A stretch of 48,870 nt of DNA from Promethearchaeia archaeon. GTDB lineage: Archaea; Asgardarchaeota; Lokiarchaeia; Sigyniarchaeales; SOKP01. Shown piece by piece: positions 23,939 through 30,486 of this stretch (positions are counted from its first letter, which is position 1; each line of letters opens with the position of its first letter). The position numbers and the translations under genes are program-made. The DNA is taken from NCBI GenBank assembly GCA_029856045.1, contig JAHQWG010000015.1:1-48870 (forward strand). Reading direction: 5' to 3'. The notes beneath the pieces were generated by a model. It was not told the origin of the DNA. It was given only the letters and a program-made list of their open reading frames with translations, and ran no database searches.

Positions 23939-25744
23939 TCATTTAACTTCTATATTTTTCTTTAGAAATTTAATAAATAAAATTAAAATCCCTAATATTC
24001 CAAAACCAATTAGAAACTCAGGAAAATAACCAAATATATAATTTCCAACACAAGAATTATCATAAATAATAGTATCCACTCCCAAGTCACTGATACATCC
24101 ACCAAGATTATAATAAAGAAAATTCTGGTAGATTTCATTATCATTTGAATCACAAATACACAACATTCCAGGGATATCTTCCAATCGGATTCCATACATA
24201 TTATTATATGAAGCATTATTGCTAAAAATTATATTATAATCCGATCCTTCTAGTTGAATGCCATTAGCATTATTAAATGATGCATTATTTGCAAAAAGCT
24301 CACTAAAATCCGCAGACCAGAGTAAAATCCCATATTCATTATTCATTGCTATGTTATTAGAAAGATTATTATAATATGAATTCTGCAATAAAATACCTGT
24401 AAAATTGTTATATAAGGCTTGATTTTCAGAAAGAACATTATATGAACCCTGCAACATAATACCACACTCATCATTAAATGAAATTTGGTTTTTAACAAGT
24501 ATATTATTATTTGAAATGTCAATATTGATACCGTTTTGATTATTAGATGCTTCATTATTCAAAAGAGAATTATTATTTGAACAACGTAAGAGAATACCAT
24601 AGTGGCTATTATATGAACAACTATTATTTACAATAGTATTGTTATAGCAATCGGAGAGTAAAATAGCTGTTGCTGTGATAGAAATATCCGAATTTGAGAT
24701 TAGTGAATTATTGCAATTAACCAATATGAGTTGCCCAACATTTGAAATTCCATTAATTTCCAATCCAATCTGATTCTCATGATATATTATTGATTTTCCA
24801 TTTACTAAATTTGTTGAATCAATCAAATTATTAAAAGATTTATATATATCTATCCAATCTTCTACCAATACATTGTAAGATAGAATATTGTTATTTGCAT
24901 AGTAAGATAAAGAAATTCCAGAATATCCATTATATGAGATGGTATTTTGGGAAATATTATTATTAGTTCCATATATTTTAATTCCAGAGATGTTATTAAA
25001 AGAAACCAAATTATTAATAACGGTGTTATTTGAATTCCAAATATTAATACCATAAGCGTTATTTAAAATAAAGTTATTAGAAAGGAAATTATTTGAACCA
25101 GAAACACTAATCCCCCATAGAAAGTTATAAGATGCAAAATTGCCAGTAAGGTTATTATAACTTGAATGCCCTAGGTAAATTCCATCATGTTCTAAATTAT
25201 GGGAAGCGTCGTTTCTTAAAAGAGAATTATTATTCGAATAAAATAAGCGAATACCATTATTATTATCTATTACCTTATTATCCGACAGAACAATATTATG
25301 TGATTTATGTAAAAAAATTCCATAGTCATTATTTTCCACTTTACAGTGATTGATATTTACATTCGTGCAATTATATAGCTTAATTCCCGTACTCCATAAT
25401 CCCGATCTGGAATTTTTAGTAATGCAATTTTTTATAATTAAAAATCTATCAGTATTTAAAACTTCAATACAAGTCTCAATCCCTCCTTTATCAATAATAT
25501 ACCCTTCAATTATATGGGCGGTAGACCATGAAAGACCATCTGTACCAGTTCCCGTACAAAAAGCATCTAATGCAGTATTTCCATCAATATAAATAGGTGT
25601 TCGTATTTCTGCTTTTGATAAATTAAATAATTTATCGCTGAATATTTCATTATTAATTTGATCTTCCCTTTTAATTGTAGGATGAAATACCAAATTAATT
25701 ACTAAAAACAATAAAAAAACAATAAAATATGATTTTTTCAACAT
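23939..25744 (-). CDS. Cell-surface NosD/CASH parallel beta-helix protein with C-terminal sorting/anchor segment
   Basis: Signal peptide from ATG 25744; many GIxLxxSxNNxxxxN repeats in two blocks; C-terminal IFGYFPEF-TM-KFLKK. Confidence 0.88.
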   Translation of the reverse strand: MLKKSYFIVFLLFLVINLVFHPTIKREDQINNEIFSDKLFNLSKAEIRTPIYIDGNTALDAFCTGTGTDGLSWSTAHIIEGYIIDKGGIETCIEVLNTDRFLIIKNCITKNSRSGLWSTGIKLYNCTNVNINHCKVENNDYGIFLHKSHNIVLSDNKVIDNNNGIRLFYSNNNSLLRNDASHNLEHDGIYLGHSSYNNLTGNFASYNFLWGISVSGSNNFLSNNFILNNAYGINIWNSNNTVINNLVSFNNISGIKIYGTNNNISQNTISYNGYSGISLSYYANNNILSYNVLVEDWIDIYKSFNNLIDSTNLVNGKSIIYHENQIGLEINGISNVGQLILVNCNNSLISNSDISITATAILLSDCYNNTIVNNSCSYNSHYGILLRCSNNNSLLNNEASNNQNGINIDISNNNILVKNQISFNDECGIMLQGSYNVLSENQALYNNFTGILLQNSYYNNLSNNIAMNNEYGILLWSADFSELFANNASFNNANGIQLEGSDYNIIFSNNASYNNMYGIRLEDIPGMLCICDSNDNEIYQNFLYYNLGGCISDLGVDTIIYDNSCVGNYIFGYFPEFLIGFGILGILILFIKFLKKNIEVK

Positions 25745-25928
25745 TTGCCCCTCCAATTCTTTCCATCATATATATTCTTTTTTATCCTAAAAACCTTTTG
25801 CAACTCAATATTCAACTAATTTTTAAAATCAAAATAATTGCTAAAATTACTCCCAATTACATATGAAATTGAATTATTGTCTGAGTTTTCTTAAAAGGAA
25901 AAAAGAAATTTTTGTAATTTACTCTATT

Positions 25929-27416
25929 TTATTGCCAATTATCTTTCCTAATCAGATAATTTAAAAGAATAACTGAAACCAAACAGAGAGTATTAATTGC
26001 AATCCATAAACTATAATATAAATCGGCAGGTAAATACCAGAGAGGTTGAGTCAAATTAGTAAACTTATGGGGTTCATTGGTTTTAACATAATTAACCCCC
26101 AAACACCAAAGCTGGGAATAGCGTTCTATGAAGTCAACAGTATATGTAACCACTGAAATATTTGCTTCCGAATACTCTCTAAATTTTGAATTACTCAAAC
26201 TATAATGTGTGTTAATTTGATCATAATCAGAAGCTAAGAATTCCTCTATAGAACAAGCGCTCCTCATTTTTGTTATGTTAGGAGCTTTATCTTCAATCAC
26301 ATCAAATAATTCATCATCGGTGGGTATCCAAATCTTATCTTCAATACCTGCCCCTACAATTAAGTCTATACAAATATTGTAAAATTGCTGACGGTATGGA
26401 TGACCCTCTGGAGGTCTTCTAAGGTCAAAATCAAATAATAGATTATTATCTCTAGTAAAATTTAAAGCTTCTTCGAATGTTGGAATTTTAATCCCGCGAT
26501 ACTCTTCCGCTTGAGTAGGAGTGATGAGACCCTTAGCTATAGCATAATATGGATCATTATCAACAAACCATGAACCTGCATCAAGTTGTTTAATCTCGGA
26601 TAAAGTAAAATTGCTCGCCCTTAAATCAGTACGATCAGGAAAAATCGCTTCAACATTAGTTGTTCGCTTGAGTGTAGAATCATGAATTAAAAAGGGAATT
26701 CCGTCGTAGCTGATTCGAACATCTGATTCCCATCCAACACATCCATAATTAACAGCTAATGTTGCAGCTTTAATTGTATTTTCCGGGGCAAGATGAGACG
26801 CCCCTCGATGAGCAACAATACCAGGTTTTGGAGGTAAAGGACCTTCAATAACATTTGCAGGCACATATAAAAAAGGCAGACTAAAGATAAATCCATAAGC
26901 CGTGATAAAACAAATTAAAATCAAAATGGATTTGGGTCGTTTTATTGATTTCTTTATTATTGTAATAATTGGGTCTAGAATAATTATTATGCCAATGGCA
27001 ACTCCAATGAAAATTAATATATTTATAGTCTCAAAAAGATAAGATACTATTGCAGCTTCCTCGCCGAATAGGTCTAGCATTATAAATAAAAGTGCACTAA
27101 AAAAAACAATAAGAATTATAGCAAGGATTTTATGTACTATATGAGGATCAATTCGATTAATTGTAAAGATATTTTTAAGGTTGAGTATTAATAAAACTGA
27201 AGAATATGCTAGTGGAATTCCAATGATGATTAAAAAGATTAGAACATAATTTGCTTTAGATCCTATGAGATCTCCAAGATATTCATTGAAATCTGCCCAA
27301 AGCGGTTCTATTGACAAAAGGATCATTTCAAAAATGAATAAACTAACAAAAGCTATTATGAAAACTAGAAGCCATTTTTTTCCTTGTTTTCTATAAAATG
27401 ATTCAAACCAATACAT
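25929..27416 (-). CDS. Six-TM glycerophosphodiester phosphodiesterase, GDE2/GDE3/GDE6-like
   Basis: 5 TM + AHRG..APENT, WESD, LIHD.TL.RTT, LDAGSWF, YTVD, GV..VKTN + 1 C-terminal TM. Confidence 0.9.
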   Translation of the reverse strand: MYWFESFYRKQGKKWLLVFIIAFVSLFIFEMILLSIEPLWADFNEYLGDLIGSKANYVLIFLIIIGIPLAYSSVLLILNLKNIFTINRIDPHIVHKILAIILIVFFSALLFIMLDLFGEEAAIVSYLFETINILIFIGVAIGIIIILDPIITIIKKSIKRPKSILILICFITAYGFIFSLPFLYVPANVIEGPLPPKPGIVAHRGASHLAPENTIKAATLAVNYGCVGWESDVRISYDGIPFLIHDSTLKRTTNVEAIFPDRTDLRASNFTLSEIKQLDAGSWFVDNDPYYAIAKGLITPTQAEEYRGIKIPTFEEALNFTRDNNLLFDFDLRRPPEGHPYRQQFYNICIDLIVGAGIEDKIWIPTDDELFDVIEDKAPNITKMRSACSIEEFLASDYDQINTHYSLSNSKFREYSEANISVVTYTVDFIERYSQLWCLGVNYVKTNEPHKFTNLTQPLWYLPADLYYSLWIAINTLCLVSVILLNYLIRKDNWQ

Positions 27417-27533: not shown

Positions 27534-28835
27534 TTAATTTTGAGGTTTAATTTTCCCTTTCAGTATTGGATCATTTGTCTTTCTCATCCAATCAAATAAT
27601 TTTTGTTTTAATTCAACTGCCACATTCTTGTAATCTGAATTATTAATTAAATTATTCCGTTCATTGGGATCTTTTTCAAGATCATAAAGTTCTTCTTTAC
27701 TTCTCGGTTTATTATATTTATTTTTCATATATCTTCCCGAAAGATCTCTCATTAAATCCATAGGCATTTGATATAAAGTGTCTAATTTTTCAAAATTATA
27801 GATATATTTGTATTTATTTGTTCTTATACTTCTAATAGGATCATATATTTCATGATAGGTTTTTTCCGTAAAAATTTCTTCTCGAAAGGATTGATTATTA
27901 TTTTTAAGAACAGGGAGGAAGCTTTTTCCTTCTATATCTTTTGGTATATCTGCTCCAATAATGTTTAAAAGAGTAGGAAGTAAATCGATATTACTTATCA
28001 TTTTATTTACAACATTCCCTCCTTTAAATAGATTTAAATTTGGCCAAGACATCAATAATAGTGTTTTAATTCCAGGATCGTATAATGTACATTTAGCTCT
28101 TGGAAAAGCACTCCCATGATCAGTAGTATAGATAAATAAAGTATTTTGTATTAATCCATTTTCTTCTAAACTCTTTAAAATTTTCCCAATCAAATTATCT
28201 ACCGCATGAATTGCTCCATAAAATTGTCCAAGATCTTCTCTAATCATTGGATGGTCAGGTAAGAAAGGAGGGATCTTAACTTTCTCTGGTTCAACTGGAT
28301 CCCCCCAAACAATAAAAGGTCTATGTACTTCAATCATTCCAATATTTACATAAAAAGGTAAATTATCGTCTTTATGTTCTTGGAAAAATTTTAAAATCTT
28401 ATTTTCCATGTATTTCTTACAATATTTATATTCTCTTGTTCTTTTACTCACTGTATCATATCCTAAGGATGAGATATTATTACTTTCATGTTGAAAACCA
28501 AGTAAATGCGTTGAATAACCATTCTCTTTCAAATACATTGGTAAAGTTTTATTGATACTAGGCAGTGTCCAACCTCTATCCACAAGTCCCATAAGCCCAT
28601 TTTGGTGAGGATATTTAGAAGTTTGAATACTTCCACGACTTGGAGAGCACTGGGGGGCAGTACAGAAATAATTTGTAAATTTTACTCCATTGGAAGCGAT
28701 TCTATCTATGTTTGGGGTATTAAGCGAATTAGGTGTTTGTGGACTATTATAACAACCGAGGAATTGTCCTTGATCATGTGTTATAAATAAAACAATATTA
28801 GGTTTCTGCCCATCTATTTTATTTGTCTTTGACAT
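27534..28835 (-). CDS. Cys-type sulfatase (sulfamidase/SGSH-like)
   Basis: CSPSR formylglycine motif, TTDHG, PRAKCTLYDPG, ELYDL..DP.E. Confidence 0.92.
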   Translation of the reverse strand: MSKTNKIDGQKPNIVLFITHDQGQFLGCYNSPQTPNSLNTPNIDRIASNGVKFTNYFCTAPQCSPSRGSIQTSKYPHQNGLMGLVDRGWTLPSINKTLPMYLKENGYSTHLLGFQHESNNISSLGYDTVSKRTREYKYCKKYMENKILKFFQEHKDDNLPFYVNIGMIEVHRPFIVWGDPVEPEKVKIPPFLPDHPMIREDLGQFYGAIHAVDNLIGKILKSLEENGLIQNTLFIYTTDHGSAFPRAKCTLYDPGIKTLLLMSWPNLNLFKGGNVVNKMISNIDLLPTLLNIIGADIPKDIEGKSFLPVLKNNNQSFREEIFTEKTYHEIYDPIRSIRTNKYKYIYNFEKLDTLYQMPMDLMRDLSGRYMKNKYNKPRSKEELYDLEKDPNERNNLINNSDYKNVAVELKQKLFDWMRKTNDPILKGKIKPQN

Positions 28836-28839
28836 GTTA

Positions 28840-30486
28840 TTATACAATTATTTTTTCGTGTTTTAAAATTTGACCATTTAGAATACCTAAATGCTTTCCT
28901 TTTTCGACGGTGATTTCACCATTTACAATGACATAATCAATACCCTCAGGATATTGACGACCATTTTCGTATGTCGAGTTATCTCTTATTGTTTGATGAT
29001 TAAAAATTACCAAATCAGCTTTAAAATTTGGTCGGATTATACCTCTATCTCTAAGACCTAAAATGCTTGCAGGTAAAGAAGTCATTTTTCGAATAGCTTC
29101 TTCTAAAGAAACAATCTTTTTTTCTCTAACATATCTTGATAAGATTCTGGGGAAGGTACCATAAGATCGAGGATGGGTATTTCCCTCAATAACCAAAAAT
29201 CCATCAGAACCTACACAAACAAAATCTTGTTTAAATAATGATAAAATACTTTTCTCCTCGCTCATCTGTCTAATGGAGATCATGATGGAGCCTTCTTCAT
29301 CTCTAATGAAATCTAATACAGCATCGTAAAATGATCTTTTTGGATAAAGAATTTTTAATGCCTCGCCTAAAAATTTTCCTTCAATATGATGGTTTTTTAA
29401 AACACTAATAATTCTTATGTCTTTCTTGAAAGAGGAAAAAATTAGTTTTTTCATTAAGAATTTTGGAATAATCCGAATTATGAAAGGAAGATCTGATAAA
29501 AAAGTCGAGAATATCATATCTAGGATTTCTGTAACAATTTTTTTCCTTGCTTCTGAATTAGTTAAATTTTGTTCAAAATCATCATAAACCCAAGGGTTAA
29601 GTAGAATGCCTGATAAGCTGGTTGATGATTCTTCATAAGGATATAAATCCGCATGAAGAAAAATTTCTTTTTCTTTAGCATTTTTAATCAGATTTATGAC
29701 ATCATGAGTTAATTTCCAAGCATATTTACCTACAGTTTTTAGATGAGAAATATGGGCGCGAACATTCGACTTTTTGGCAATCTCAATAACTTCTCTAATT
29801 CCTTGTTCTATTATCCTTGTTCCTTCATTTCTCATATGTGTATCATATAGACCTCCAAAATCAGATACAACTTTACAGAGCTCAATAATTTCGGACGTTG
29901 GAGTGATTGAACCGGGAGGATAAACCAATCCTGTAGATAAACCAAAAGCGCCTATTCCCATTTCCTTTTTTACTATTTTTTTCATTTCCTCAAGTTCTTC
30001 TGATTTTGATGGACGATCTTCCAATCCTAGGATATAAGTTCTTATATTTCCGTGTGGTATAAAAAAAGCAAGATTTGAAGAAACGCCTTTTTTCTTGAGC
30101 ACTTCCATATAATCTTGAATGGAGTCATATAATTGTGATACTGATGAACCAAAAGCCTTAGTTATAAAATTAGAATAATAATTTCGAACTTTTTCATTTG
30201 CGGGTGCTCGCCCAATTCCACACATCCCTACTACAAGTGTTGTAACACCCTGCATTATGGCGGCTTCTGCTTTATTTACTTCTAATATAGTTAAATCAGC
30301 ATGAGAATGCATGTCAATAAATCCAGGTGCAATTATTTTATTTGAAACATCAATTATATCATATCCATTTCCCTCCAAATTTGCACCAATCTTTAGAATT
30401 TTATTATCTTTTATTGCAATATCGGATTTATACCTTGAAGAACCAGTTCCGTCAATTATCCATCCATTTTTTAGCAGAATTTCCAT
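28840..30486 (-). CDS. N-acyl-D-amino-acid deacylase (amidohydrolase)
   Basis: PGFIDMHSH, QGVTT.V.GMCG, HMRNE, HISHLK, GSDG, HPRSYGTFPR. Confidence 0.92.
   Translation of the reverse strand: MEILLKNGWIIDGTGSSRYKSDIAIKDNKILKIGANLEGNGYDIIDVSNKIIAPGFIDMHSHADLTILEVNKAEAAIMQGVTTLVVGMCGIGRAPANEKVRNYYSNFITKAFGSSVSQLYDSIQDYMEVLKKKGVSSNLAFFIPHGNIRTYILGLEDRPSKSEELEEMKKIVKKEMGIGAFGLSTGLVYPPGSITPTSEIIELCKVVSDFGGLYDTHMRNEGTRIIEQGIREVIEIAKKSNVRAHISHLKTVGKYAWKLTHDVINLIKNAKEKEIFLHADLYPYEESSTSLSGILLNPWVYDDFEQNLTNSEARKKIVTEILDMIFSTFLSDLPFIIRIIPKFLMKKLIFSSFKKDIRIISVLKNHHIEGKFLGEALKILYPKRSFYDAVLDFIRDEEGSIMISIRQMSEEKSILSLFKQDFVCVGSDGFLVIEGNTHPRSYGTFPRILSRYVREKKIVSLEEAIRKMTSLPASILGLRDRGIIRPNFKADLVIFNHQTIRDNSTYENGRQYPEGIDYVIVNGEITVEKGKHLGILNGQILKHEKIIV

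Follow-up and report, generated by a model that had tools for sequence, protein, structure and literature searches.

The question raised by this locus is whether an archaeon encodes a membrane enzyme of a family known from animals, what such an enzyme would do in an archaeal cell, and where the family arose. The window, by which we mean the whole stretch of 48,870 nucleotides analysed here (contig JAHQWG010000015.1 of a Promethearchaeia archaeon, assembly GCA_029856045.1), carries at 25929-27416 on the (-) strand an uninterrupted open reading frame (ORF) with an ATG start, 495 amino acids and zero internal stops, according to the ORF list and its translation. An earlier note on this DNA, made from the letters alone, had described the product as five N-terminal transmembrane helices, an intact glycerophosphodiester phosphodiesterase (GDPD) domain and one C-terminal helix, and had proposed it as a candidate eukaryotic signature protein akin to the animal enzymes GDE2, GDE3 and GDE6 (GDPD5, GDPD2 and GDPD4). 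In this study, we believed that the gene encodes an archaeal member of this six-transmembrane family, an assignment supported by the agreement of full-length sequence, motifs, architecture, predicted fold and tree placement. The product is probably a membrane-anchored ecto-glycerophosphodiester phosphodiesterase, in a minimal form without long cytoplasmic tails. Full-text literature searches yielded no paper that connects GDE2-type enzymes with Asgard archaea or with any other prokaryote, in line with the absence from published Asgard lists that the earlier note had suspected.

GDE2 has been studied in neuronal differentiation and neurodegeneration. Studies have shown that the animal enzymes combine six helices with an ectodomain that is catalytic and with tails in the cytoplasm, that GDE3 is a phospholipase C specific for glycosylphosphatidylinositol (GPI), and that GDE2 releases choline from glycerophosphocholine in vitro and sheds GPI-anchored proteins (PMC7033719, PMC5576486). 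The orientation of the GDE2 ectodomain has been established experimentally (PMC7033719). The window protein resembles animal GDE2, GDE3 and GDE6 in the order of five transmembrane helices, GDPD domain and one transmembrane helix, in a catalytic domain that faces outside (by prediction here), in the catalytic His, Glu and Asp, in the motifs KP-x-x-x-HRG, D-x-[KR]-x-PP-x-x-HPY, LWC.G and P.W, and in 29-32% identity over nearly the full length. It differs from GDE2 in that its N-tail and C-tail are 15 and 6 residues long, respectively, so the cytoplasmic tails that control trafficking of GDE2 (PMC7033719) are missing, and from the three animal enzymes in that it belongs to its own archaeal clade and its host lacks detectable machinery for GPI or inositol lipids.

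Because ordinary search results were filled with Asgard proteins of about 500 amino acids, the query was restricted to residues 196-495 and compared with longer proteins only. The first non-archaeal matches were GDPD5, GDPD4 and GDPD2 proteins of fish, frog, Ciona and a nemertean, with E values from 1e-56 to 1e-41 and 32-40% identity over 92-99% of the query, whereas the best multidomain bacterial GDPDs reached 1e-21 or worse. In BLASTP, a fish GDPD5 was aligned over residues 70-472 (E 5e-68, 32% identity) and a nemertean GDPD2-like protein over residues 43-481, spanning helices 2-6 (E 4e-62, 29% identity), and the phmmer matches to eukaryotic members covered residues ~15-490, membrane domain included. 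When 1.84 billion cluster representatives (clusters at 50% identity) were searched with phmmer, there were 155 matches at E<=1e-30 and 1562 at E<=1e-10, and nearly all of the best 150 were aligned over the whole length; from the contrast between 155 and 1562 clusters, the subfamily is therefore distinct. Some JGI records bear the GDE3-type name "glycerophosphoinositol inositolphosphodiesterase".

The GDPD Pfam family PF03009 matched the window protein at E 1.7e-21, and the catalytic residues H203-R204-G205, E230-x-D232, H245-D246 and D331 were all present; H203, R204, E230, D232, H245, D246 and D331 were kept in at least 90% of 85 family members. Judging from the HRG motif, H203 would be the counterpart of GDE2 H233, and the GDE2 mutant H233A is catalytically dead (PMC7033719). 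D331 sits within the subfamily motif D-x-[KR]-x-PP-x-x-HPY, which stands where other GDPDs have an E-x-K strand. In the representative alignment, this motif, the KP before HRG, LWC.G and the P-x-W leading into helix 6 were found in Asgard, Chloroflexota and eukaryotic members and not in outgroup GDPDs. The earlier note had taken its motifs from human GDE2; our comparison used fish, frog, tunicate, nemertean and priapulid proteins in place of the human sequence. The KP before HRG, LWC.G, the P.W before the sixth helix, the N/D after the first helix and the HK before the third align with animal, ichthyosporean and other eukaryotic members, P458-x-W460 and the W471 lead-in to the sixth helix are conserved with the eukaryotic members, and FDLRRPPEGHPYR is identical between the window protein and fish GDPD5 in the pairwise BLASTP. 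The HK motif is common to Asgard archaea and eukaryotes and is not found in Chloroflexota. The further claim that generic GDPDs lack these motifs held for KP, LWC.G and P.W and failed for WF..DP, which is not specific to the subfamily because the nearest soluble bacterial GDPDs carry it too.

The gene and its parts are placed as follows.

25929..27416, stop codon included, (-) strand: coding sequence of the predicted six-transmembrane GDE2/3/6-family glycerophosphodiesterase, 495 amino acids (P0001), from the ORF translation; homologs align from residue 1-5 to ~490.

26871..27371, (-) strand: N-terminal five-helix membrane domain, residues 16-182, homologous to the transmembrane domain of animal GDE2/3/6 and without a match in Pfam, from hydropathy, K+R counts, AlphaFold2 helices and BLASTP, in which the nemertean GDPD2-like protein is aligned through residues 43-190.

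26031..26849, (-) strand: predicted extracellular GDPD catalytic domain, a triosephosphate isomerase (TIM) barrel, residues 190-462, from PF03009, PDB sequence and fold matches and conserved columns.

25950..26006, (-) strand: sixth transmembrane helix, hydrophobic core residues 471-489, from hydropathy; the AlphaFold2 helix covers 464-494, and a 6-residue predicted cytoplasmic tail follows the helix.

A 19-residue hydropathy scan gave six hydrophobic segments, at residues 16-34, 59-77, 97-115, 133-151, 164-182 and 471-489, and AlphaFold2 placed the N-terminal helices at 13-35, 37-51, 57-85, 93-130, 132-156 and 161-183, with a predicted local distance difference test score (pLDDT) above 83. 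Together with PF03009 and the catalytic residues, these results confirmed the layout of five helices, intact GDPD and one helix that the earlier note had read. The K+R counts were 4, 3, 5 and 2 in the N-tail, loop 2-3, loop 4-5 and the C-tail, respectively, and zero in loops 1-2 and 3-4; the predicted cytoplasmic segments thus held 14 in total and the two short outer loops none, with three acidic residues apiece in the latter. By the positive-inside rule, the N-terminus should lie inside and the ~280 residues between helices 5 and 6 (residues ~185-465) outside. The catalytic domain is therefore predicted to face the cell exterior and not the cytoplasm, as the earlier note had expected. The ectodomain has 5 N-glycosylation sequons where ~2 are expected, an excess too weak to support the topology.

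The AlphaFold2 model of the whole chain, membrane helices included, was built from an 85-sequence alignment and had a mean pLDDT of 94.2 and a predicted template modelling score (pTM) of 0.92; the whole chain is predicted to form one compact structure. In the ESM Atlas, a chordate "GDPD5-like" cluster superposed on the model with a template modelling (TM) score of 0.82 over 478 residues, and a Promethearchaeota cluster compared with the full-length model scored 0.88. The PF10110-type membrane GDPDs of Bacillota scored only 0.52. Foldseek against the PDB found Bacillus subtilis GlpQ (5t91, E 3e-15, TM score 0.79 by target and 0.43 by query), and the fold also resembles the Staphylococcus aureus lysophosphatidylglycerol phospholipase D (8ghh/8ghi). 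Sequence and fold searches of the PDB returned soluble GDPD domains only and no six-transmembrane GDE structure. The compact, tail-less prokaryotic orthologs, modelled at very high confidence, would be practical targets for structure and biochemistry.

The window protein was also compared with the other membrane-bound and soluble enzymes of the GDPD superfamily. The Anaerolineaceae/Brevefilum six-transmembrane proteins, annotated only as glycerophosphodiester phosphodiesterase, are like it in architecture, motifs and clade, at 30-37% identity; they differ in being bacterial, often 50-100 residues longer, without the HK before the third helix, and with PfkB and C_GCAxxG genes downstream. The Bacillota PF10110 (GPDPase_memb) enzymes likewise have a polytopic membrane domain followed by a GDPD, and their catalytic domains are homologous to ours (hhalign E 7e-32), but their membrane domain has seven helices, the C-terminal helix is absent, E-x-K is kept and they fall in the outgroup of the tree. 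We rejected the idea that the five-helix domain belongs to PF10110 or another Pfam family, since the hhalign alignment covers the catalytic part only and residues 1-198 had no Pfam match even at E 10. Soluble or periplasmic GlpQ and UgpQ (for example, B. subtilis GlpQ, PDB 5t91/5t9b) share the TIM-barrel fold and the catalytic residues, whereas they have no membrane domain and no subfamily motifs, and their identity of 20-26% is limited to the catalytic domain.

The catalytic-domain tree contained 81 rows and ~287 columns and was inferred with IQ-TREE under LG+C20 with posterior mean site frequencies (PMSF), by a short search with Shimodaira-Hasegawa-like approximate likelihood ratio (SH-aLRT) support, and it was rooted with PF10110-type, fused and soluble GDPDs. 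The six-transmembrane family formed one clade of 67 rows (SH-aLRT 100, branch length 0.66), with the soluble and PF10110-type GDPDs outside. This agrees with the earlier expectation that the protein would group with GDE2/3/6 and not with the bacterial membrane GDPDs, and the PF10110 membrane domain has no detectable homology to the five-helix domain. Within the family, the Asgard and Chloroflexota clades had SH-aLRT values of 96 and 98, respectively, and the main eukaryotic clade (20 rows) had 94; Mastigamoeba and one unnamed pair were not placed firmly. A FastTree of 139 full-length proteins recovered the Asgard, Chloroflexota and eukaryotic clades with supports of 99, 100 and 98, respectively.

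Carriers among Asgard archaea amounted to 63 of 400 sampled genomes (16%) and 21 of 85 genera at E<=1e-30, patchy across families, and the named matches came from Hel-, Hermod-, Hod-, Heimdall-, Thor- and Loki/Promethearchaeota. The nearest relatives of the window protein, at 84-90% identity, belong to metagenome-assembled genomes (MAGs) of Promethearchaeota. Contamination was ruled out as a source of the gene, as these closest relatives sit on Promethearchaeota contigs as long as 913 kb. Two closed genomes from the same order, each a single contig (4.3 and 6.0 Mb), also have the gene, as have MAGs labelled Promethearchaeum. The host genome itself measures 3.34 Mb in 55 contigs, is scored 100% complete and has the six-transmembrane gene in single copy. 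Among the best 80 loci from species-representative genomes, 45 were Chloroflexota (Anaerolineaceae, Brevefilum or Anaerolineales), full length and with 5+1 helices; the Chloroflexota carriers comprise at least 44 species genomes, mostly Anaerolineaceae, on contigs of up to 3.2 Mb, and a ten-member sister clade of metagenome proteins was traced to Chloroflexota. Prevalence in bacteria was low: of the genomes sampled from the Chloroflexota family, 21 of 301 had the gene, and when the class was sampled evenly, 2 of 401 did.

The eukaryotic members known by name come from fish, frog, tunicates, echinoderms, a priapulid, a nemertean, a cephalopod, the ichthyosporean Chromosphaera perkinsii, Mastigamoeba balamuthi (two genes) and the apicomplexan Cystoisospora suis, whose protein falls inside the animal sequences. 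The eukaryotic members recovered, by searches that fall short of an exhaustive eukaryote survey, included none with a plant or fungal name. A profile of non-animal members returned vertebrates and a cephalopod only, owing to the word index of the search, and the ESM Atlas feature search returned chordate clusters only. Because the named eukaryotes are animals, an ichthyosporean, Mastigamoeba and one animal-nested apicomplexan, a gene in the last eukaryotic common ancestor (LECA) is not indicated by these searches.

Several single records among the carriers deserve mention. Three Asgard-type copies (L045, L073 and L055, 42-49% identity to the window protein) lie on contigs labelled Deferrimicrobium, Nanopelagicaceae and Bathyarchaeia; a single MAG series (SMAG_U...) is the source of all three, and their positions are within Asgard clades, so that errors of binning or labelling are the probable cause, or else recent transfer. 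A GDE2-like gene without introns (P0266; locus L084, 8001-13692) was found on a gene-poor metagenome contig of 39.6 kb, and the clade that it represents is most likely eukaryotic because the contig is gene-poor and the gene stands beside Glyco_transf_22 (ALG9/PIG-B-type mannosyltransferase) and C2orf69 genes; the carrier would be a microbial eukaryote. The Mastigamoeba balamuthi protein P0176 (886 amino acids) has three HRG motifs in three matched stretches, seemingly tandem GDPD domains, and the second Mastigamoeba gene, P0252, lies ~5 kb away on one scaffold, judging from the record name. P0282 (272 amino acids), inside the Chloroflexota six-transmembrane clade, is a soluble-looking GDPD without transmembrane helices; it is a fragment of a gene or else has been shortened secondarily.

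The family is thus common to Asgard archaea, one Chloroflexota lineage and some eukaryotes, mainly Holozoa. Inheritance of the gene by eukaryotes from Asgard archaea is not shown by the trees. The proposal of a eukaryotic signature protein stood in so far as the window encodes an archaeal protein of the GDE2/3/6 family. It did not stand with respect to restriction: the earlier note had counted wide bacterial occurrence of the same architecture as evidence against itself, and the same 5+1 protein is present in many Anaerolineaceae/Brevefilum genomes, so among prokaryotes the family is not found only or almost only in Asgard archaea. This is a caution that an Asgard-animal match alone is not sufficient for calling a eukaryotic signature protein, and at the same time a clear case of one membrane enzyme that Asgard archaea have in common with a single bacterial lineage and with eukaryotes that are mainly holozoan.

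Two accounts of the origin have to be weighed. In one, Chloroflexota joined a local soluble GDPD to a membrane domain, and separate transfers carried the product to Asgard archaea, their neighbours in anoxic sediments, and to a eukaryote early in the holozoan or amorphean line. In the rooted tree, soluble GDPDs are sister to the six-transmembrane family, and the genomic relatives of these belong to Anaerolineae, Acetothermia/Bipolaricaulia and Syntrophobacteraceae; none of the best 80 is an archaeon. The best rooted topology joined Chloroflexota with eukaryotes (SH-aLRT 91), and in the approximately unbiased (AU) test Asgard archaea with Chloroflexota was weakly rejected (p 0.034). Divergence inside Chloroflexota (49% identity) is as deep as inside Asgard archaea (47%). 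However, few Chloroflexota carry the gene and the carriers centre on one family, the support comes from a quick search with SH-aLRT only and an outgroup root on ~287 columns, and Asgard archaea with eukaryotes was not rejected (AU p 0.081). We regard this account as possible, though doubtful. In the other account, the eukaryotic GDE2/3/6 sheddases descend vertically from an Asgard ancestor, and the archaeal enzyme already cleaves GPI-like or other lipid anchors. That same AU result agrees with it, as do the much higher prevalence in Asgard archaea than in bacteria and the HK motif shared by Asgard archaea and eukaryotes to the exclusion of Chloroflexota. Against it stand the pairing of eukaryotes with Chloroflexota in the best tree, the rejection of eukaryotes as sister to the Heimdall-labelled clade (AU p 0.00013), the narrow range of named eukaryotes, and the host genome, which yields no inositol-phosphate synthase, GPI-transamidase-like or archaeosortase gene. 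The identities do not help it either. Mean catalytic-domain identities for Asgard-Chloroflexota, Chloroflexota-eukaryote and Asgard-eukaryote pairs were 36.7%, 34.6% and 32.5%, respectively, about equal between the groups, and the membrane-domain means were 14.7%, 12.7% and 14.3%. Vertical descent from an Asgard sheddase is thus improbable in our view. Its fuller version, in which the animal sheddases come from a pre-eukaryotic Asgard phosphodiesterase that already edited lipid-anchored surface molecules and the Chloroflexota copies are a side transfer, seems to us slightly more improbable still. If Asgard descent were true, a piece of eukaryotic surface remodelling would predate eukaryotes and be open to study in cultured Asgard strains. 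For this gene, the eukaryotes do not nest within the Asgard diversity that was sampled, and a bacterial origin appears at least as likely as an archaeal one.

By analogy with GDPD enzymology, H203 and H245 would serve as general acid and base, R204 would bind the phosphate, and E230, D232 and D331 would hold a divalent metal. The cut would fall at the phosphodiester between glycerol phosphate and the head group, in substrates at or near the outer face of the membrane. Exogenous glycerophosphodiesters or lysophospholipids would then yield phosphate, head groups and either glycerol or glycerol phosphate, which the cell would take up. We tentatively propose such scavenging hydrolysis, as a tethered counterpart of periplasmic GlpQ, as the role in this sediment archaeon, and not the shedding of GPI-anchored proteins. 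Scavenging from lipid breakdown is favoured because of what the genome lacks. No match to Inos-1-P_synth, Peptidase_C13 (the GPI transamidase family) or an exosortase/archaeosortase was found in the host genome, and the control genomes gave the expected matches. With neither Inos-1-P_synth nor Peptidase_C13 matched, the cell is unlikely to offer a GPI substrate of its own, and we rejected an endogenous GPI or inositol lipid as the substrate; GPI-anchor cleavage has no genomic support in the host organism. The genome has 8 genes of the PIG-L family, which is a general one. It also encodes a glycerol-kinase-like protein (451 bits) and a dehydrogenase domain of the GlpD type (DAO_C). Scavenging draws further on the choline release from glycerophosphocholine by GDE2 in vitro (PMC7033719) and on genes directly downstream in other genomes, a PfkB kinase in Anaerolineaceae and an MFS_2 transporter in six Heimdall loci.

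Several points weigh against scavenging. The glycerol-kinase match lies below the NCBIfam curated cut-off, the proposal draws on absences and on a weak context, and no neighbour recurred in more than 6 of 35 archaeal loci, so that there is no conserved Asgard neighbourhood. A five-helix domain kept from archaea to animals exceeds a simple anchor and hints at a lipid or membrane-bound substrate. Archaeal lipids are built on glycerol-1-phosphate, so action on the cell's own lipids would need a different stereospecificity. The chief functional alternative is that the enzyme acts on its own membrane, removing head groups or turning over and remodelling outer-leaflet polar lipids in the manner of a phospholipase C or D. 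The confident model (pTM 0.92), in which the conserved five-helix domain packs onto the barrel of the catalytic domain, the action of the animal relatives on membrane-embedded GPI lipids (PMC7033719, PMC5576486) and the fold likeness to the S. aureus phospholipase D agree with this. But the family works in cells with glycerol-3-phosphate ester lipids and in archaea whose ether lipids contain glycerol-1-phosphate, which speaks against one fixed lipid substrate of the cell's own, and no lipid-metabolism neighbours were seen in the loci compared; we consider action on the own membrane unlikely. The gene directly downstream offers one more alternative. At 23939-25756 on the (-) strand, 172 bp from the phosphodiesterase gene, lies a gene for a 605-amino-acid NosD/parallel-beta-helix surface protein that starts with a signal-like helix and has a C-terminus of FPEF, a hydrophobic helix and KK. 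The adjacency on one strand and this C-terminus could suggest that the phosphodiesterase releases a C-terminally anchored beta-helix protein. However, no PGF/PEF-CTERM or other sorting-domain model matched the beta-helix protein, the complete genome gave no exosortase/archaeosortase gene, such a neighbour stood next to the gene in 0 of 80 other archaeal and bacterial loci compared, and a plain transmembrane helix is no phosphodiester substrate. With the sorting signal, the archaeosortase and the conserved adjacency all negative, such a module is disfavoured and appears very improbable, and tentative scavenging is the role that we retain.

Apart from a sulfatase and an amidohydrolase gene, the other neighbours in the window are unrelated housekeeping genes. 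Directly upstream, at 27534-30486 on the (-) strand, are the sulfatase gene (PF00884, arylsulfatase-like, no obvious signal peptide) and an overlapping gene for a D-aminoacylase-type amidohydrolase. The sulfatase, amidohydrolase, phosphodiesterase and beta-helix genes form a run of four hydrolase or surface genes, with no mutual link shown. Elsewhere in the host genome there are two short generic GDPD matches; the weak GDPD match at G000:C27:123222-123488 (L003) has an in-frame TGA inside. In other genomes, an MFS_2 transporter gene lies directly downstream of the phosphodiesterase gene in six Heimdall loci. In the Anaerolineaceae loci (L004-L024, ~20 species genomes), genes for a PfkB-family sugar kinase and a C_GCAxxG_C_C redox protein lie ~50 bp downstream, an order that may be synteny among close relatives. 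Some Anaerolineaceae copies have a SulP/STAS transporter or malic enzyme gene upstream.

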